Origin: a virus | Taxonomy: Duplodnaviria; Heunggongvirae; Uroviricota; Caudoviricetes | DNA: 64,000 bases | IMG/VR virus record: IMGVR_UViG_2654587772_000002 | Direction: 5' to 3' (one strand) | Part shown: positions 3,824-51,750 of the stretch, piece after piece | Numbering within the stretch: position 1 is the first letter of the stretch | Layout: each line of letters begins with the position of its first letter | Position numbers and translations under genes: made by a program | Notes under the pieces: generated by a model | Seen by the model: only the letters and a program-made list of their open reading frames with translations | Database searches by the model: none | Told to the model about the DNA's origin: nothing

Positions 3824-4713
3824 TATGCAAGCCTCACAATATAATTAAATGCGATGTTTTTAACGGTGTTTTCCGAGTTACCAGCAGCGTTAACGGTGAT
3901 GGTGTGTCCATGTGAACCAATCGCAACAGAGTGCGTATGAGCGCCAATATCAACTGTATGTGCATGCGCCCCTGCACTTGCAGCGGTGCCTGATACTGAG
4001 TGGGTGTGTGCACCAGAAGAAGGCACAGTTCCATTCCCCACCACAGTGCCGCTTGATGAGCCATCAAGCCAGTCGAAATTCATACCGCCACCATCTGGTC
4101 TCCTTAATGGAACGGTATGAGTATGTGCGCCAGCACTATTTGCAGTACCAGATACATTGTGGGTATGTGCACCTGTGTTATTCGTTGATTTAGTACCGTA
4201 ATCAAACGAAGATGTGGTTTTCGTACCCAAATCCGTATTGGATGCGCTGGCGCTGTGGGTGTGCGATTTAATGCCATCCTGTTCCAGAGACAATACGTCC
4301 CGACCACTGGCGGGTTTGCCCTTGATTGTCCAGCCACGCATATCCGGGATCACGCCTGACGGATAAGCGGCTGCAAGTTTCGGGTATGCAGATTTGTCAA
4401 AAGTCTGTCCCTGCATCAGGGCGTAACCAGACGGCACAGTATCTGATGGCCACGGATGCGGAACACCAACAGGAAGGACCTCAATATCCCCGGAACCATC
4501 AAACGAAACGTTATTAATTTTACGGGCTGTTTTCAGCTTTGTAGCCGTTGAGGCATTGCCGGACAGCTCACCAGAAATGCCACCAACAACTGTTAGATCA
4601 CCAGTTATTGTGCCGCCTGAACTTTCCAGTTTTTTAGCAACATCACTCTTAATAGAGTCGATTTCTTTTTTCAGATTAGTTATATCTGCTGGTATCGTTG
4701 TCACTGTTGCCAT
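3823..4713 (-). CDS. stf: Side tail fibre C-terminal module (lambda Stf-like) with its own start
   Basis: [52 protein letters not shown] ... GAHTH repeats ... [31 protein letters not shown] match lambda Stf C-terminus. Confidence 0.8.
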
Positions 4714-5001: not shown

Positions 5002-7901
5002 TAAATAACCTCAGCCATTTGTTGGTCTGTTAATGCTTTATGCCATATTCTGAAATTTCTGATATGACCAAATAAATGACGTAACCCTGCTGTAGTCTGG
5101 CCTCCAATACGGATGGTTGCAGAGTTCTGAATATAGGACCATGTCGTCTTTGTTTCGCTGGATATGCGCCCGTTACTTACTGAGCACGTAGACTGATCTG
5201 ATTTTACACGCATCCCCATAACCATTTTTTCAAGCAATGCGTTTTCGTTTACCCGTCTGTTAGCTCCTCCAATATCGCAATAAGGAAATCCGTCGTAATC
5301 TGCTGAAGAACCGAAGCCAAGAATAATAGCCGCTCCGGTTTGATGACCGCCGGTATCAAAAACACGTGGCGCTGCATTTGGCGTTTTATACCAGTTCTTA
5401 TGTACCTCACAAAGAACCGTAAAAGGAAGATTATAAAGATTATTATTAATTGGAACTGTAACTATATCGCTTGCGCGGGTAGCCGCCGTCGTTCCCGAGA
5501 TAATAAAAGATGATGCACACGAACCATCCTCAACCTGAGGGGTGGACAGATAAATATAGTCTCCAGATATGGTTGCTCCGCCCTGCTTAGGAGAATACTG
5601 TATCTGAGATCCTATTTTTAACTCATCATCAATTGCCTGGATTGTTGCCTCTGCAAAAATCCATCCGGTAGCTTCGTCCTTTCTGACTCTCGCTGTAATC
5701 CTTGAGGCCGCGCCACCTGTCATATTAATTTCAAGCGTTTGTGTATCAATATATGCATCACCAAGAAAAGTTGTTGCACTACCGTCATATTTATCAAAGC
5801 GGATACGTAACCTTACCTGTCGTTCTGTTTTAAAACGACATGAGGTTGTCACGTACTTGTTATCGCCTGAAACATCAACTGACTTTGTAGCAGCAATTGA
5901 TGCCATATTAATGGCTGACGTTTGCCCAATCAGAGAATCGTTACAGACAAACTTTCCATAGGTAAAACCAAAACTATCCGTCCCGGTTTCGGGAACATCC
6001 ATATTTGACGAGCGCCCCCAACTGGCAGGGTTTTCCGAATTGAGCATGTAGTTTGTTCGTTGTCCCTCAATAAGCAGACCATCACGTTCAAATCGTGGCT
6101 CGTCAATGGCAGCCTCTGTCAGCACACCAGATTTATTTATATAGGTTGCTTTCGATGCGCGTTTAAACTTAACAACCTTGTCGCCAGGCATTGTTATTTC
6201 GTCGTCGCCAATAACAATCTTTTTATATGATGGAGAAAAGCCCGCAATCATATCCAGCGAATCGTTAAACGGTATCCACACATCTGGCAGCGGTTGAATA
6301 ATCTTCCTGGCATCCTCCAGTGACAATGCTTCGACATCCGAAGCTGTTAAAGAAATATCTGCCGAACCGTCAAATGAAACGTTGTTAATCATCCGTGCTG
6401 TTTTTAATTTCGTTGCGGTGTCGGCGTTCCCCATCAGTGCGCCGGTGATCCCGCCGTTGAAAGTCTGGCGTGCACTCCATGTGTTAGCCGTGCTCAACAG
6501 GGGGATCTTTTCACCGCTTGTGCCGAGTTCTCTTAAACCAAGGTATTGGATAACAGCAAGGACGCTTGTTTTGGACAGAATATCGCGACCGACTGACGTT
6601 AAGTCAGTCTGAGAAACAGTGTCTGTACCGGTAAAGTACGGCAGTTTATTTGCGCCTGTAGCAAGACCAGCAAGCGCGGTTAAAGTTGCATCCAGAGGCT
6701 GTTTGCCTGCCAGCGCATTTGTCATTGTTGTCGCAAAGTTCGGGTCATTACCAAGTGCTGCGGCAAGCTCATTCAGGGTATCAAGAGCTTCTGGTGATGA
6801 ACCAACCAATGCGGATATGGCAGCTCTTACATAAGCAGTCGTAGCAATCTGCGTATTATTTGTGCCCTGCGCAGCCGTAGGCGCAGTAGGGACTCCCGTT
6901 AATGCAGGGCTTGCCAAAGGCGCTTTGAGGGCTAGGGCATTGTTGATAGTTGTGCTGAAATTCGGGTCGTTATTGATCGCAGCAGCTATTTCTTTAAGCG
7001 TATCCAGTGTGCCAGGTGCACCGTTGATAAGTGCCGTTATAGCTGACTTAACAAAGGCTGTATTTGCGATCTGCGTGCTATTTGTACCTTGCGCTGCCGT
7101 CGGCGCGGTTGGCGTTCCTGTCAGACTCGGGCTTTCTATTGGCGCTTTGGTATCAGCAAGACCTTTTACAGACTTAACGGCTTTAGGGGTAGCCGCCATT
7201 GTTTCGCTGTCGCTGTTAGTTTCGCTACTGAGCTGAACTAATCCCTTTTGCGTTGTGCTTGCATCCTGTGCCGTATACTTGCTTTTCGCCAGATCGTAGG
7301 CTTTTTTAGCTGCCAGCGAACTTGCAGCAACATCACTTCTGCTACTGGTTACAGAGTCTGAAATATCAATGCCGATCGTGCGGTTAATACGCTCGGATGT
7401 ATCAATCATCTCCTGGGTAATGGCTGATACGCCAGCAGGGATATTCACCGTACAAACAAGCAGCTCTCCATCTCCTAACTGATATGAATCGGTATAGGTT
7501 CTGGCAACAAATTCAGCCGCATGAATATGTGACGCGGTATTAACCTGATAGGTATCCTCTCCAAGGAGGTATCTTCCCTTCAGCACAATTGCATATTTCT
7601 TGCCTTCACTAAGTGCAAGAGAAATATCCTTACGGTGCCGAATAGTTACCTGGTAGAATTCACCAATATCCACTGACGCAGCGCCAGCAGTTTTATCACC
7701 ATCCACTGAGGTGATTAACAGGTTCATACCACCGCCAGGCTTCGGCAGGAAACCGGCATAAAACCCAGGATCAACAATTCCCCTGAATTTTCGGTTTAGC
7801 GCGGCTGACAGATATGGTTCGTGGTATTGCACATCAGCCACCAGAGCCAGTGACTCGGGCGATGGGTAAGTAACTGATGTAACAACTGTAACGTCATTCA
7901 T
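5001..7901 (-). CDS. Tail fibre protein with Stf-type collagen-like repeats and a distinct C-terminal (lectin/LamG-like?) receptor-binding domain
   Basis: Repeated PL(A/D)SPxLTG(T/V)PTAPTAAQGTNxTQIA(N/T)TA(F/Y)V units and GLVQLSSETNSDSETMAATPKAVK as in lambda Stf; start set at internal ATG (MNDVTVV) just after the upstream stop; ORF-track start 7988 overlaps the previous gene. Confidence 0.8.
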   Translation of the reverse strand: MNDVTVVTSVTYPSPESLALVADVQYHEPYLSAALNRKFRGIVDPGFYAGFLPKPGGGMNLLITSVDGDKTAGAASVDIGEFYQVTIRHRKDISLALSEGKKYAIVLKGRYLLGEDTYQVNTASHIHAAEFVARTYTDSYQLGDGELLVCTVNIPAGVSAITQEMIDTSERINRTIGIDISDSVTSSRSDVAASSLAAKKAYDLAKSKYTAQDASTTQKGLVQLSSETNSDSETMAATPKAVKSVKGLADTKAPIESPSLTGTPTAPTAAQGTNSTQIANTAFVKSAITALINGAPGTLDTLKEIAAAINNDPNFSTTINNALALKAPLASPALTGVPTAPTAAQGTNNTQIATTAYVRAAISALVGSSPEALDTLNELAAALGNDPNFATTMTNALAGKQPLDATLTALAGLATGANKLPYFTGTDTVSQTDLTSVGRDILSKTSVLAVIQYLGLRELGTSGEKIPLLSTANTWSARQTFNGGITGALMGNADTATKLKTARMINNVSFDGSADISLTASDVEALSLEDARKIIQPLPDVWIPFNDSLDMIAGFSPSYKKIVIGDDEITMPGDKVVKFKRASKATYINKSGVLTEAAIDEPRFERDGLLIEGQRTNYMLNSENPASWGRSSNMDVPETGTDSFGFTYGKFVCNDSLIGQTSAINMASIAATKSVDVSGDNKYVTTSCRFKTERQVRLRIRFDKYDGSATTFLGDAYIDTQTLEINMTGGAASRITARVRKDEATGWIFAEATIQAIDDELKIGSQIQYSPKQGGATISGDYIYLSTPQVEDGSCASSFIISGTTAATRASDIVTVPINNNLYNLPFTVLCEVHKNWYKTPNAAPRVFDTGGHQTGAAIILGFGSSADYDGFPYCDIGGANRRVNENALLEKMVMGMRVKSDQSTCSVSNGRISSETKTTWSYIQNSATIRIGGQTTAGLRHLFGHIRNFRIWHKALTDQQMAEVI

Positions 7902-45332: not shown

Positions 45333-45619
45333 AAATGACCTTTCTTTCTCCAGATTTCTTGTGTGCGAAAAACCCCTTCAGCATGCATCAGGCGCAATTC
45401 TTCTTTGGTGTAATCGCTGGTTTTTACCCGCCCGTCGATTAGATCGTGGCATGAGCTACAGGCTATCGCCGCCTGCATATCGTGTGGTTTTGTCGCTGTT
45501 CCGCACGTCCCCGCCAGCCTGTAATGCGCCAGCACAGAGGTTTCGGGATTGTGATTGCAGTAGCCAGGGATTCTGATCTGGCATATCTGGCCTTTAGCCG
45601 CTTTACGTAAATTCACCAT
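45329..45619 (-). CDS. Nin-region Cys-rich protein (DUF1364/YbcO-like)
   Basis: 96 aa with CxxxxxxC...CSSCH Cys/His pattern; 4-nt overlap with Q start. Confidence 0.5.
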   Translation of the reverse strand: MVNLRKAAKGQICQIRIPGYCNHNPETSVLAHYRLAGTCGTATKPHDMQAAIACSSCHDLIDGRVKTSDYTKEELRLMHAEGVFRTQEIWRKKGHL

Positions 45620-46218
45620 TACGCAAACTCCAGTAGTTGTGCGGCCACATTTTCAACTTCCTCCTGAGAGGAGAATTTACGGAACAGAATCCAGTTCCAC
45701 AGCACATTCAGTACAGATTTATAAACCTGCTGAAACTCGACTTCGTCCATATTCGCAAAAGCGATGGATTTTGCCCGACGCCCACGGCTACCGTCCGGAT
45801 AAATATGCTCGGTGTAAAATCCGGCCTGAATGGTTACCCACTCGCGGAAAGCCTCAAACGACTTTAGCAACGCCGTATCCCGGGTTCTACGAGTCGCAAC
45901 GGTGTTAAGGTATTGCTCTGCGGCATCACTCAGGGCTGGCGTGTGTTCCCGACCAACTGATTCGCACAGGTAATCAACGAAACCAGACAGCAGTTCTCGT
46001 TCGCGAGGCGTGATCGCCCCACCGACCGGAGTCCAGTAATCGAATCCCAGTTGCAGGAGTTTGAAAAAACGCTTGTGGAATGCGTAGTTACGCACACGCT
46101 TAAAATCTGCGTGTATCCACTCACCTATTTTGATTTGATGCAGAAAATCGCAACTCTCCGGCGTCGCCGGGAGAAGTAAACCAGAAGAAGTTTGTTTGAC
46201 CAGTTGTATATGCGCCAT
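45619..46218 (-). CDS. Nin-region protein (DUF1367-like)
   Basis: 199-aa ORF, 1-nt overlap with downstream gene; family assignment from memory only. Confidence 0.4.
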   Translation of the reverse strand: MAHIQLVKQTSSGLLLPATPESCDFLHQIKIGEWIHADFKRVRNYAFHKRFFKLLQLGFDYWTPVGGAITPRERELLSGFVDYLCESVGREHTPALSDAAEQYLNTVATRRTRDTALLKSFEAFREWVTIQAGFYTEHIYPDGSRGRRAKSIAFANMDEVEFQQVYKSVLNVLWNWILFRKFSSQEEVENVAAQLLEFA

Positions 46219-46636
46219 TTCTCAATCTCTCGATGGCGCAGTGCAGCAGATGCCAGTTGTTCAAGCTAGCACGCAAATTGTAAACCAGAATGCCAGGAAA
46301 AAACAAAACCCGCCGAAGCTGGTTGTGTGCGGTTGCGTTGAAGTCTCCTAGCCAAAGAGTAGCGGTGACCACTCCCCGCCGATAATCTTAGTTGTTTAAT
46401 TTCGTAAGCTAACTAGGCTAAAAGCTCTCTGTTGTCTGCCTGTTGTACAATTAACAAAATGAACAACGAACTAGATATACCAACGCCAGAATGGTGCAAC
46501 AAATCCCAAACAACACAGCAATGCAACAATAACATATGTTATTTTCCTCTCACGGGATTCAGTCCTGAATTCTCATAAAGCTAATCTTTTTTTAAAAACA
46601 TACTGTTAGATCACATGCACTTTCTTTCTTAACATC

Positions 46637-46664
46637 GTTGACTTCGCATGCGAAGCGTTTAAAA
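46637..46664 (+). promoter_or_regulatory. Sigma70-type promoter for the ATPase operon with palindrome TTCGCATGCGAA in the spacer
   Basis: TTGACT (46637-46642), 16-nt spacer, TAAAAT (46659-46664); perfect 12-bp palindrome 46642-46653. Confidence 0.45.
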
Positions 46665-46717
46665 TCAACAATTTGCACTTAAGGTATTTATTTTCCCAAA
46701 CACATAGAGAGTAAATT

Positions 46718-48109
46718 ATGACTGAGAACACGACTCCAACAGCAGACTTTAGTCCTAGTAAAAGATTTTTTGTGAGTATGCTAACTCGAGATATCGACTT
46801 AAACGATGCCATACTTGATCTGCTTGATAACTGCGTCGATGGGGCTTTACGTACAATAAAAGACACAAAAAAAACTTCAAAACCATATGAAGGATTTTAT
46901 GCGAAACTTACGATTAATAAAGATGTCTTTATTATAGAAGACAATTGCGGAGGTATCCCTAAAAGCTTCCGAGAATATGCTTTTAAAATGGGACGACCCC
47001 ATCAAAAAGAAGAAGAAAATGAAGGCACCGTTGGCGTCTATGGTATTGGTATGAAAAGAGCCATTTTTAAAATGGGTAGAGATTGCTCAATACAATCGAA
47101 TAATCCCGATGGCGCATTCACTGTAGATATAACACCTGATTGGATCGATGGTGATGGTTGGAAAATACCGATGCACGAGAGTGACTATGATAACAAAAAT
47201 CCAACAGGCACAACTATAGAGATAAAAAAACTCCATTCTAATGTGGCACAAAAATTTAATGAGAGCACATATCTTACTGATCTCTTTTTACAGATAAAAC
47301 ACTCATTGTCATTTATTATTCAAAAAGGATTTAAAATAGAATTAAATGGAGTTGTTGTTGAACATAATCCGATTAACATCATAACTGATCATTCTAAAAT
47401 AGAACCATACATATATAAAGCTAAAATAGACGATGTTGATATCGATTTAGTTGTTGGCTTCTATAAAAATTTAGAAGATGACAATGATGATGTTTTAGAA
47501 AAAAGGAGTTCTGATGATGCTGGATGGACTGTCATTTGCAATGACCGCGTTGTTCTATATTGTGATAAGACACATCTCACAGGTTGGGGCTTTGCTAATG
47601 TACCAAGGTTTCATACCCAATTTATAGCAATTTCTGGGGTTGTTCGCTTTACCAGTAAAAACCCAGAAAAATTACCAATAACAACAACGAAACGAGGTGT
47701 CGATCTTAGTTCTACATTGTACAATGATGTACGAAATAAAATGATTGAAGGGATGATGCATTTTATTCGATTCACCAATCAGTGGAAAGGTGAGCATCTT
47801 GAAGAAGGGAAAAAATTACTTAAGTCAGCTCAGTCACATGAAGCTCAATCTTTATTTGAAATTACCCCACAATCAACTCCAGAAGATAAAAAAAATAACT
47901 GGTCCAACCCTAATAGAAACAAAAATGAGTGGCGATATACACCTAAGCTGCCTACCCCAGTAAAAAAAAGCTCTACTGTACGAATAATCTTCACCAGAGA
48001 GAAAGAAGATGTTAAAATTTTATCTAAATATTTCTTTGGACATGAAGATGCTAGCGCTTCTGATGTGGGGATGCAATGCTTTGATACGGTGATTGAAGAG
48101 GTGAAGTGA
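46718..48109 (+). CDS. GHKL-family (MutL/MORC/histidine-kinase-like) ATPase with about 330-aa C-terminal domain of unknown function
   Basis: Bergerat-fold motifs: N box LLDNCVDGA, G1 box IEDNCGGIP, G2 box GVYGIGMKRAIFKMG in the first ~120 residues. Confidence 0.8.
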   Translation: MTENTTPTADFSPSKRFFVSMLTRDIDLNDAILDLLDNCVDGALRTIKDTKKTSKPYEGFYAKLTINKDVFIIEDNCGGIPKSFREYAFKMGRPHQKEEENEGTVGVYGIGMKRAIFKMGRDCSIQSNNPDGAFTVDITPDWIDGDGWKIPMHESDYDNKNPTGTTIEIKKLHSNVAQKFNESTYLTDLFLQIKHSLSFIIQKGFKIELNGVVVEHNPINIITDHSKIEPYIYKAKIDDVDIDLVVGFYKNLEDDNDDVLEKRSSDDAGWTVICNDRVVLYCDKTHLTGWGFANVPRFHTQFIAISGVVRFTSKNPEKLPITTTKRGVDLSSTLYNDVRNKMIEGMMHFIRFTNQWKGEHLEEGKKLLKSAQSHEAQSLFEITPQSTPEDKKNNWSNPNRNKNEWRYTPKLPTPVKKSSTVRIIFTREKEDVKILSKYFFGHEDASASDVGMQCFDTVIEEVK

Positions 48110-49098
48110 TGTCTGGACAATACATTCCCTATCACTTAAGGCATAATAAGTCTATTGATAGAGAGATTTTTCTCGAAAGCCTAAACCTCTTAAGCAAAAG
48201 ACTAAATATTCAAGAATATACATATATAGGTTTTGGTGGTCCGATGCTTGAAGATTTTAGAATCATGCATAATCGTATCGCTCTTTCTGATATGATTTCT
48301 CTCGAAGAACAAGAGTCTACTCACATCAGACAAAAATATAATTTGCCTTATAATTGTATTGATTGTAAGCTAATATCAGCTCATGACTTTATTCTTGATT
48401 ATAGTTTTTCTAAACCATCAATAACATGGTTAGACTATGCCTCCCCGAAAAAAATACAAACGGATCTAGATGATATACACTTACTAAGTACTAAAGTAAG
48501 CTCTTTTGATATTTTGAAGGTCACCTTCCCCATAAATCCTAGTTCTTATTACCAACGTAGAGTTGGAGAAAGTTTAGATATTTTTAAAGAAGCTTTTATT
48601 AATTCATTAAAATCATTGCTTGGGAAAAAGTATCTTGATTTTAATCTTCAGATATCAAATGCAGATCTTTCAGATCGTAAGATTAAAGCTCTTTTAATAC
48701 GAATTATTACAAACGCTTTTAGATCAGCAATAGAACGTGGTCTTTCAGGACGTAAGGATAAGATTCAGTATTACCCATTATCTTTAAATCAATATAATGA
48801 TGGCAGTCATACCATGTTGACAATATCAGGTTTTTTCTCCTCAGAACAAGAATATATAGAGTTATCTAAGGCATGCGACCTTTCTAACTGGCAATTTTAT
48901 TCAACAAATTGGGAAGACGTGCAAGAAATAGCAATACCAACACTAACAATTAAAGAAAAGATAAATTTAGATAGTAAACTGCCTGATAAAGAAGCATATC
49001 AGGCAGCCGCTGAAGAGTTCTCTTTAAACGAAAATGAACGGGATAACTATTATAAATACTATAGGTTATACCCTAACTTCCAAAGAATTATGGTTTAA
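48106..49098 (+). CDS. Unknown 330-aa protein translationally coupled to the GHKL ATPase (candidate effector/specificity subunit)
   Basis: Stop/start overlap (GTGATG) with upstream gene; AT-rich; no recognisable motif. Confidence 0.6.
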   Translation: MMSGQYIPYHLRHNKSIDREIFLESLNLLSKRLNIQEYTYIGFGGPMLEDFRIMHNRIALSDMISLEEQESTHIRQKYNLPYNCIDCKLISAHDFILDYSFSKPSITWLDYASPKKIQTDLDDIHLLSTKVSSFDILKVTFPINPSSYYQRRVGESLDIFKEAFINSLKSLLGKKYLDFNLQISNADLSDRKIKALLIRIITNAFRSAIERGLSGRKDKIQYYPLSLNQYNDGSHTMLTISGFFSSEQEYIELSKACDLSNWQFYSTNWEDVQEIAIPTLTIKEKINLDSKLPDKEAYQAAAEEFSLNENERDNYYKYYRLYPNFQRIMV

Positions 49099-50217
49099 AT
49101 ATTCGGGCTGTACTCTTTTATTTAATAAATTGTACAGCCCCTTTAATATATATTCAGCAACTATTGGTGACACGCTATTTCCTATTTGTCTGAAACTATG
49201 CCATTTAGTTACATGAAAGCGAAACCAATCAGGGAAGCCTTGTAATCTAGCAGCTTCTCTTGGTGTAATCACTCTTGGATGATAAGGGTGGATCGGCCTG
49301 ACGGCTTGAAAGCTTCCTTTATCTCTAGCGGTTCCCGCCCTTAAAGTCGGGCAAAAACCATTTGGATCTAATCTTGTAGATCTTGAAATTTTATCAGTTT
49401 CCCCAAAAGATAAGGAAGCATAACGCTCTTGGACGATTTTGCTATGTAATGTTCCGGTACATCCAGATATGATATTATTTTTTAACTTAGCGATCGATTC
49501 TGTATCACCAACATTCCGAGGGATCTGCCCCCATAATTTTTCATAAAATCCCCCTTTTCGATCTTTTTTAATTGTTCGCCAACTCTCAGAGTCTGATTGC
49601 CAATTGGCATCGATAATATCTGGTAATCCATACAAAGCATCTTTTACAGTAACCGGATCAATCATTTTAGGCATAAATACTTCATCTGAAATATCAAGCT
49701 TCAATGATTTTTTTACACCGATAAAAAAATATCTAGTTCGAATAGTTGGAGCACCATAATCAGATGCTTTTACCTTGATGGGATCAAGAATATCATAATC
49801 ACCGCTAACCAAATTAAATGCTTTATTTCTAATGCCAGAATATTTCTCTTGCATAATACCTGGAACATTTTCTGCCAAAAAGAATAATGGCTGTAATTCT
49901 GATACTAAACGGTAGAAATGCATGTAAAGCTGATTCCTGCTATCATCAGGATTCCCCTTGCCTATTGAACTAAATCCTTGGCACGGAGGACCGCCAATAA
50001 TACCATCTATGGGCATATCGTTTTTAAAAAAACCCTTAATTATTTCTGCATTTAGTAAAGAAACATCTTCTTGGACGTGCAAACTTCTTGGAAAATTAAT
50101 TGCGTGAGTATTAATAGCATGTTGATCAATTTCAACTGCCATTTTAACATCAAATCCAGCACGTGCAGCACCAAGACTTAGACCTCCAACGCCAGAAAAC
50201 AAATCTATTACATTCAT
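49066..50217 (-). CDS. DNA (cytosine-5)-methyltransferase
   Basis: Motif I DLFSGVGG, motif IV GGPPCQGFS, motif VI ENV (FLAENVPG), motif X GNSVSP; about 150-aa variable target-recognition region; convergent with partner gene, 3' ends overlap 33 nt. Confidence 0.9.
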   Translation of the reverse strand: MNVIDLFSGVGGLSLGAARAGFDVKMAVEIDQHAINTHAINFPRSLHVQEDVSLLNAEIIKGFFKNDMPIDGIIGGPPCQGFSSIGKGNPDDSRNQLYMHFYRLVSELQPLFFLAENVPGIMQEKYSGIRNKAFNLVSGDYDILDPIKVKASDYGAPTIRTRYFFIGVKKSLKLDISDEVFMPKMIDPVTVKDALYGLPDIIDANWQSDSESWRTIKKDRKGGFYEKLWGQIPRNVGDTESIAKLKNNIISGCTGTLHSKIVQERYASLSFGETDKISRSTRLDPNGFCPTLRAGTARDKGSFQAVRPIHPYHPRVITPREAARLQGFPDWFRFHVTKWHSFRQIGNSVSPIVAEYILKGLYNLLNKRVQPEYLNHNSLEVRV

Positions 50218-50479
50218 ATAGTTGCAACGTCTCTTATTAGTTTCTATGTATTATAACACAACTGTTCTTGATGTTTTAACCCCATAAGATAACCTCATAA
50301 AGGCTATCCCTTGAAAATACCGGATCGCATAAATTTAATCTTTCAAAACTACTTGTCTATTAATCGAGCAATTTAAGGTTTTTTTAGTCATGTCGATACC
50401 GACATAGTTAACTAAACCCATTTCATCGTCCAACAAATGGGGGTAATACACTTTGATTTATAGTCGGGTGGGTTTTTCT

Positions 50480-50515
50480 CTATCTGCCTTTGGTGTTCAT
50501 GCCCAAGGCAGATAG
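50480..50515. repeat. Perfect 11-bp inverted repeat with 14-nt spacer
   Basis: ctatctgcctt ... aaggcagatag in the intergenic region upstream of the methyltransferase. Confidence 0.6.
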
Positions 50516-50568
50516 CCTCAAGCACCCGCAGCAATTCTACTTAACTATCCTTTTCCCGCAAATCGTTT

Positions 50569-50652
50569 TTATCCCCAGCGGCAAATCGAATACACAACCA
50601 GCGCCACCGCCATCGCAATTCCTACCGTTGTGAATGCTTCAGTCCAGGTCAT
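50569..50652 (-). CDS. Small hydrophobic peptide (27 aa), translationally coupled (ATGA) to upstream ORF
   Basis: MTWTEAFTTVGIAMAVALVVYSICRWG: single predicted TM helix; start overlaps stop of 50649..50906. Confidence 0.35.
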   Translation of the reverse strand: MTWTEAFTTVGIAMAVALVVYSICRWG

Positions 50653-51152
50653 CGTGAAACATCCTCCACGCTTATAAGTCCGCTTCGCTCCAGGTAGTCC
50701 ATCACTTTATCCGGCAATTTGCAGCCCGGTTTCGCTTTCTTCAGTTGACTAACCAATTGTTTAACCAGCATTGTCAATTCGCGAACTTGTTTCCCGGGCT
50801 CCCCTTTGCCCTGAAGCAGGGCAGCGCGGCAAGCGTTCCATCCCTCAGCATATGTTTCAGTTACACCATCGAGATGGCATGTAAGCAAATCCATTTCTTC
50901 CGGCACTACTGGCGCTGGAAAAACGGCATAGGGTGGCGTCCATTTTGGCGCTTTATCTCCAGCCGAACGCTGCTACCAGTCATCCGGTTTGTATTCATAA
51001 AAATCACCAACTGGCTCTGCTTCCAGCGATGCCAGAGCAATTTTGAATAATTCGCCCTCTACCCGTGCCATCCCTGAATTGGGGTGGCATTTCTCAATCG
51101 CTATTTTTAATTTAGCTTCTTCGATTAATTGCTTTTTGGTTAATTCAGTCAT
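50649..51152 (-). pseudogene. Early-region ORF interrupted by an in-frame TAG at 50973-50975
   Basis: ATG at 51152 and the 85-aa ORF are in the same frame, separated only by one TAG (..YKPDDW*QRSAGDKAPKW..PEEMDLL..). Confidence 0.45.
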
Positions 51153-51312
51153 TTTTCATTACCGCCCTTTCGGGCCGCCTCCTAATATTTTGAGGGTGCA
51201 GCCCCCCCTCCGGTTAAGGATTAAATTTTATTTACAGTGCTAAATTTAATTATTCAGATTTGGATTATGATTTCTCTTTCAGTTCACGCAGTTCCCTGAT
51301 TGTTAATTTGGC

Positions 51313-51750
51313 TCACAACAGCACATCCTGAAAATTACCCTGATAGAACGCCAGTACACGCTGCATGACTTCGCTCTTCCGGCACTCGCGACAGATTATA
51401 TTCAGACGCCTGTCATAGCGGCGTATTTCTCCGTCTGGTAATGACCAGATAAGGTCCGGATCAACTACAGCAGGTTTCTTCACCTTTGCCCTCGATAGTT
51501 TTTTGCGGGCGTTTTGCCAGTCTTTACGCGCCTGTTCAGACGGGAATAACCCGTAACCAGAGTTGTATACATCGCCACTGGCAACCAGCTCACTGGCGAG
51601 AACACTCATCAGATATCTTGTCGCACCTGTCTTGGCTTCCAGTTGCCGTAACGTCTCGCGACCGCTCAGACGTACAAGTTCAACAACCTGCCCTTTAATT
51701 TTTTCCCGCTCTTCTGGTGTAAATACTTTTGCCATAAGCGCCTCCGGCAA
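51313..51750 (-). CDS. Hypothetical early-region protein
   Basis: 145-aa ORF abutting the upstream gene. Confidence 0.45.
   Translation of the reverse strand: MPEALMAKVFTPEEREKIKGQVVELVRLSGRETLRQLEAKTGATRYLMSVLASELVASGDVYNSGYGLFPSEQARKDWQNARKKLSRAKVKKPAVVDPDLIWSLPDGEIRRYDRRLNIICRECRKSEVMQRVLAFYQGNFQDVLL

Follow-up and report, generated by a model that had tools for sequence, protein, structure and literature searches.

A conserved, predicted sigma-70 promoter at the left edge of a MORC-like ATPase cassette in a Rac-type prophage, and the probably fortuitous palindrome in its E. coli spacer

Prophage context and genes of the cassette

The window, by which we mean the whole stretch of 64,000 nucleotides that was analysed, represents a Rac-type lambdoid prophage of E. 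coli, the phage genes of which are located on the minus strand. Its nin region contains an AT-rich island of 30–38% GC between flanks of 45–52% GC, and the same 4 kb are present with at least 99% identity in 172 of 5,426 complete E. coli genomes, including those of O157:H7 EDL933 and of O111:H8 strains. Three genes and two predicted promoters are found in the island, and the genes are listed here together with the promoter assigned to the methylase gene.

46342–50470, no strand: AT-rich island in the nin region
46718–48109, plus strand: ATPase with GHKL and S5 domains (MORC/Hsp90-like), 463 amino acids (Pfam PF13589 and AF2 model)
48109–49098, plus strand: PF20553 protein, annotated as 'O-methyltransferase', 329 amino acids
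49066–50217, minus strand: C5 DNA cytosine methyltransferase (Dcm-type; Pfam PF00145 over residues 1–361)
50250–50279, minus strand: predicted dcm promoter from a consensus scan, with a weak −35 element TTAAAA (50279–50274) and an extended −10 element TGTTATAAT (50258–50250)

In other lambdoid phages, the position of the island is taken by hokW/sokW. The sequences at the island borders (46243–46341 and 50403–50696) share homology with the hokW/sokW region of Stx phages and other lambdoid phages, and a sok-like remnant on the minus strand (50403–50527) was recognised by Rfam with 50.2 bits, which is below the gathering score of 59. It appears that the cassette either replaced or split a hok/sok module at this position. 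The unit of the ATPase and PF20553 genes runs against the early rightward transcription of the phage and converges on dcm.

The AF2 model of the ATPase (pLDDT 82.8) matched Hsp90/TRAP1, SMCHD1, MORC2/3 and ParE over about 400 columns, and no nuclease domain was found in it. The stop codon of the ATPase gene overlaps the start codon of the following gene (TGATG), and the ATPase and PF20553 genes probably constitute a translationally coupled bicistron. A fold search with the model of the PF20553 protein yielded a Rossmann methyltransferase fold resembling RsmD and Trm1, and its annotation as an 'O-methyltransferase' seems doubtful. The predicted catalytic positions include the invariant N38 among the Mg/ATP-binding GHKL residues of the ATPase, and the FGGP and WLDY motifs of the PF20553 protein. 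The Dcm protein is near-identical to the one deposited as PDB 3g7u, and its matches with M.HaeIII and M.HhaI cover the N-terminal catalytic half only (query residues 1–200). PADLOC contained no model for the PF20553 protein or the ATPase; Dcm matched only the generic methylase models of type II, Druantia and DISARM systems.

The dcm and PF20553 genes converge, and their 3' ends overlap by 33 bp (49066–49098). This overlap has been kept in nine orthologous cassettes (L083–L087 and L104–L107) and is not present in L089, and its conservation suggests either constrained convergent transcription or an antisense coupling of the two units. The cassette was further compared among loci L002–L081 and L122–L171. 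The linkage of the ATPase, PF20553 and dcm genes was found in about 70 of 80 distant loci, which come from many bacterial phyla and one archaeon, and a Dcm gene adjoins the ATPase gene in about 75 of these 80 loci and in all close loci with sufficient flanking sequence. About 50 viral contigs likewise encode ATPase relatives. The cassette resembles a DNA-modification or defence-like module that is as yet uncharacterised.

The predicted promoter of the ATPase operon and its conservation

Scanning for consensus elements upstream of the ATPase gene and aligning the orthologous cassettes gave the following features.

46638–46643, plus strand: −35 hexamer TTGACT (consensus scan), with TTGAC invariant in eight cassette lineages
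46642–46655, no strand: perfect 14-bp palindrome CTTCGCATGCGAAG, present in the E. coli lineage only
46643–46654, no strand: 12-mer TTCGCATGCGAA inside the 14-mer
46644–46659, plus strand: 16-nt spacer TCGCATGCGAAGCGTT, the length of which is kept across lineages and the sequence is not
46660–46665, plus strand: −10 hexamer TAAAAT (consensus scan), with TA..AT invariant in eight lineages
46666–46667, plus strand: invariant CA directly after the −10 hexamer (lineage alignment)
46670–46672, plus strand: predicted transcription start, from the position of the −10 hexamer
46707–46711, plus strand: Shine-Dalgarno sequence GAGAG before the ATPase ATG

The arrangement TTGACT-(16 nt)-TAAAAT, which the original prediction had placed one base too low, is indeed present upstream of the ATPase gene. 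It agrees with the consensus at 10 of 12 positions and reaches the joint top score of the consensus scan within positions 45500–51500. The ATPase start codon had been expected at a distance of about 55 nt; we measured 52 nt from the −10 hexamer to the ATG at 46718, and the 5' UTR of the operon would comprise about 46–48 nt if transcription begins at the predicted start. In the genome of strain EDL933, the locus corresponds to positions 2,157,827–2,157,854 of NZ_CP008957.1 with an identical promoter sequence, and the ATPase gene is EDL933_RS11260 (2157907–2159298), the methylase gene EDL933_RS11270. The predicted start falls at about 2,157,859–2,157,861 on the plus strand of this record. A Cappable-seq data set exists for this strain (PMC10469882). 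Searching Rfam revealed no RNA element at the ATPase promoter.

The conservation of the promoter was analysed in eight lineages, consisting of the window and seven others, which were represented by cassettes whose ATPases are 75–87% identical to that of the window. Scans of IMG/VR contributed just three further non-identical close loci to this set, and a scan of genome contigs returned only ATPase relatives of 42–47% identity. The bases TTGAC, the ungapped spacing of 16 nt, the TA..AT of the −10 hexamer and the following CA were invariant in all eight lineages, at a mean column identity of 59%. Within the spacer, A46654 is the only invariant base of the eight lineages, and a (G/C)AAG motif is frequent; as exemplified by the sequences TCCCTATCGAAGCGCT, TCACATTGCAAGTGCA, TAGCTGGTGAAGCATT and ATCAATCAGAAGTGCT, the spacers of other lineages have nothing but this (G/C)AAG in common with that of the window. 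In E. coli genomes, the promoter occurs solely as a version of at least 99% identity, and megablast searches with two of the variant promoter lineages gave no match in this species.

The homology between the lineages starts about 25 bp 5' of the −35 hexamer, near position 46613. The genes located upstream vary by lineage and comprise DUF1367, Rem, unrelated small ORFs and, in one case, a chromosomal purB neighbourhood. Because these upstream contexts differ between the lineages, the promoter belongs to the cassette. It sits at the left border of the cassette and accompanies the cassette into a variety of phage and chromosomal surroundings. The conservation footprint is that expected for a functional sigma-70 promoter owned by the cassette, and its use in vivo appears probable on these grounds. 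The assignment as the promoter of the ATPase operon is very probably correct, with hexamers, spacing and the bases after the −10 hexamer invariant in eight diverged lineages.

In all these respects, the element resembles ordinary sigma-70 promoters of mobile gene cassettes, which share its near-consensus hexamers, its 16-nt spacer and a 5' UTR containing a Shine-Dalgarno sequence, and in which hexamers and spacing are likewise kept among orthologues while the spacer sequence drifts. We see no essential difference from such promoters; the spacer of the E. coli version merely happens to hold a 14-bp palindrome.

The methylase gene has a promoter of its own. The pattern TG.TA.A.TA was invariant in an alignment of nine lineages, and no palindrome was detected within this promoter. 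By this conservation, dcm is predicted to be driven by its own extended −10 promoter on the opposite strand. In most of the distant relatives, dcm is instead located on the same strand as the ATPase gene, either tens of bases 5' of it or directly abutting. With the ATPase gene positioned immediately 3' of dcm in this way, a separate ATPase promoter is unlikely in these relatives.

Extent, distribution and chance expectation of the palindrome

The palindrome had originally been described as a perfect 12-bp sequence at 46642–46653 within the spacer. Its perfect symmetry was verified, but the 12-mer is located at 46643–46654 and the true extent of the palindrome is 14 bp, which includes an overlap with the final two bases of the −35 hexamer. 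The 14-mer contains the shorter palindromic sites GCATGC (46646–46651), CGCATGCG and CATG. It is restricted to E. coli loci whose ATPase is 100% identical to that of the window, and the spacers of the seven other lineages contain no palindrome of at least 8 bp. The best dyad scores of these seven lineages were reached by 508–1929 of 2000 shuffled sequences (25–96%), which is chance level.

For the window itself, shuffling the 44-bp promoter core 2000 times gave a dyad with seven of seven matching pairs in 35 cases (1.75%). Locally, the palindrome is somewhat unusual by this measure, and its G+C-rich core stands out within an island of 35% G+C. The picture is different when the entire window is considered. 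It contains 12 perfect palindromes of 12 bp versus 15.6 expected, 4 palindromes of at least 14 bp versus 3.9 expected, and 81 promoter-like sites. A promoter-like site enclosing a palindrome was found in 47% of the block-shuffled windows for palindromes of at least 12 bp and in 13% for those of at least 14 bp. After this look-elsewhere correction (0.13–0.47), a palindrome in a promoter spacer is not unusual.

Part of the symmetry is incidental, namely that of the outer three of the seven pairs (CTT/AAG), which consist of the end of the −35 hexamer and the commonly retained AAG. The inner CGCA/TGCG differs from the sequences of the other lineages. A reading of the palindrome as a terminator or hairpin was ruled out, as it is loop-less, lacks a T-run and lies where the terminator scan was negative. 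It is located 5' of the predicted transcription start and is thus not contained in the transcript of the operon.

Another perfect palindrome of 16 bp, AATAACATATGTTATT, was observed at 46528–46543, where it overlaps the start of a hydrophobic ORF of 40 amino acids on the minus strand (46413–46535). This ORF is preceded by a Shine-Dalgarno sequence GAGG, as noticed by reading the sequence, and had no Pfam match. Both the 16-bp palindrome and the ORF are situated in about 280 bp of E. coli-specific DNA between the phage flank and the cassette.

Interpretation and comparison with known systems

We consider it likely that a constitutive sigma-70 promoter carried by the cassette drives the translationally coupled ATPase-PF20553 bicistron, and that the spacer of its E. 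coli version has drifted into a palindrome. RNA polymerase holoenzyme would recognise TTGAC, the 16-nt spacing and TA..AT and initiate near 46670–46672, and the ATPase and PF20553 genes would be translated as a coupled bicistron, the transcription unit of which would meet that of dcm head-on. The palindrome would arise as a by-product of drift in an unconstrained spacer and have at most a slight effect on promoter strength. In E. coli, H-NS frequently silences AT-rich islands of this type, and the term 'constitutive' may therefore fail in vivo.

The original prediction had considered the palindrome as a possible operator of a repressor or controller protein. This was not borne out, since the dyad is absent from the seven other lineages and neither a partner site nor a C-box nor an HTH gene accompanies it. 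An operator serving a protein of the island should persist or co-vary in orthologous cassettes; because no dyad does so, the operator reading is unsupported. A search of the 64-kb window, which also covers the immunity region of the prophage, revealed no second copy of the 14-mer anywhere relevant at up to three mismatches. Likewise, there was no half-site of the palindrome near the convergent dcm promoter, and a comparison of 14 further loci in which dcm is convergent showed no recurrent dyad 5' of the ATPase gene. The C-box pattern GACT-N3-AGTC, searched with at most one mismatch, had no match at the promoter, and its 11 matches in the window compare with 15.6 expected. That the island contains no small HTH gene, as had been noted before, was confirmed by the small ORFs of the flanks, which lacked significant Pfam matches and, in particular, any match with an HTH family. 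The models of the ATPase and the PF20553 protein did not yield HTH-type matches either and retrieved only GHKL/S5 and Rossmann methyltransferase folds. The palindrome is probably not a dedicated operator and probably represents a lineage-specific, fortuitous feature.

It is improbable that a functional dyad evolved in the E. coli copy of the cassette (that of the O157/O111-type Rac prophage), be it as the operator of some host or prophage regulator or as a site methylated by the cassette's own C5 methylase. With such a dyad, the expression of the MORC-like ATPase operon would depend on whether another factor is present or active, which would represent a regulatory solution for an R-M-like module without a C protein. 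As an operator acquired in the E. coli lineage, it would be bound between the −35 and −10 hexamers by a dimeric transcription factor of the host or the prophage, which would repress the ATPase operon. The perfect 14-bp dyad is placed exactly where repressors occlude RNA polymerase, and its local improbability (35 of 2000 shuffles) is consistent with this. The dyad is also invariant in all E. coli copies examined, but this is uninformative, as these copies are more than 99% identical overall and the entire region shares at least 99% identity. With no dyad in the seven orthologous promoters, neither a second nor a related site anywhere in the 64-kb window (immunity region included), no HTH gene in the island and a look-elsewhere probability of 0.13–0.47, we regard an acquired operator as unlikely.

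Still less probable is a methylation-sensitive promoter, in which the C5 methylase of the cassette would recognise GCATGC, or a motif overlapping it, within the palindrome, and spacer m5C would tune transcription of the ATPase operon. Target sites within promoters regulate some R-M systems, the cassette itself includes a C5 methylase gene, and GCATGC, CGCATGCG and CATG are available as sub-sites; the modification and ATPase arms would then be linked by feedback. However, GCATGC is absent from the promoters of all other lineages, and these share no palindromic spacer site despite Dcm orthologues that are 68–83% identical in the close lineages, a degree at which the same specificity would be expected. 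The sources reached (the table of PDB 3g7u, the generic names of homologues and the literature on the O157 m5C methylome, PF20553 and CP-933R) name no recognition specificity for Dcm, and the numbers of GCATGC sites (2 in the cassette and 6 in the window) are uninformative.

Autoregulation of the operon by the ATPase or the PF20553 protein binding to the dyad, which had also been envisaged originally, is hardly credible: residues 246–325 at the C-terminus of the PF20553 protein are helical, which lends no direct support, but a conserved cassette protein acting in this way predicts a kept or co-varying dyad and none exists among the orthologous cassettes, a separate ATPase promoter is unlikely in most of the distant relatives, whose ATPase gene lies 3' of dcm, and the fold searches yielded GHKL/S5 and Rossmann methyltransferase folds only.

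Known controller operators differ from the locus in several aspects. The C-boxes of the PvuII, AhdI and Esp1396I systems consist of two tandem dyads (GACT-N3-AGTC-N4-GACT-N3-AGTC) and are located in the promoter of a small Xre-type HTH gene for the C protein, which is co-transcribed with the endonuclease gene (PMC2175313). The locus in the window is similar in that a dyad overlaps a promoter in a gene cluster containing a DNA methylase, but it has a single dyad of unrelated sequence, which is not conserved among orthologues, and contains neither a C gene nor a recognisable endonuclease gene. C5 methylases of the SsoII/Ecl18kI/MspI type autoregulate via an N-terminal HTH region. These systems are alike in combining a C5 methylase and divergent or convergent partners with an inverted repeat in the promoter region; here, however, the dyad is not conserved and belongs to the promoter of the partner operon, 3.5 kb away from the start of dcm. 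Moreover, the Dcm protein of the cassette lacks the N-terminal extension: its sequence begins with MNVIDLFSGVGG, which represents motif I starting at about residue 5, and because the PF00145 match also extends from residue 1, there is no SsoII-type N-terminal DNA-binding region.

A closer resemblance exists to the predicted R-M-like operons with GHKL ATPases of the MORC and paraMORC families (Iyer, Abhiman and Aravind 2008, PMC2292703). As in these, a GHKL plus S5 ATPase gene occurs in linkage with a gene for a DNA cytosine methylase, at times together with vsr, and the distribution across phyla is sporadic and mobile. The difference lies in the fixed partner, which is the PF20553 protein with its Rossmann methyltransferase fold and not a helicase or a recognisable nuclease.

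The palindrome should not be read as pointing to regulation of the controller type or to an SphI-like specificity, at which its GCATGC core had been said to hint. A promoter has been identified for an uncharacterised operon, and the palindrome itself is of little consequence. For this widespread prophage-borne cassette, which is present in E. coli O157:H7 and O111, the analysis defines two conserved promoters that can guide the design of expression constructs. The cassette, which combines Dcm with a MORC-like ATPase and a protein of RsmD/Trm1-like methyltransferase fold, is more interesting than the palindrome, and because it contains no recognisable nuclease and had no match in the defence catalogue, it is also the better experimental target.

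Two variations of the cassette were noticed in other loci. In a Serratia relative (L088, 6672–9398), the ATPase-PF20553 pair converges with the gene of a second, longer HATPase_c_3 protein (608 amino acids), which is followed by a more distant Dcm (46% identity), resulting in a variant architecture with two GHKL ATPases. In L017 (about 4350–4460) and L071 (about 5880–5970), the DNA 5' of the ATPase gene, when read by eye, gives a peptide similar to ...VLVIWQCEL. This peptide seems to resemble the C-terminus of Vsr endonucleases. A Vsr-like protein at this position would fit the association with Dcm and Vsr noted for MORC-type operons (PMC2292703).
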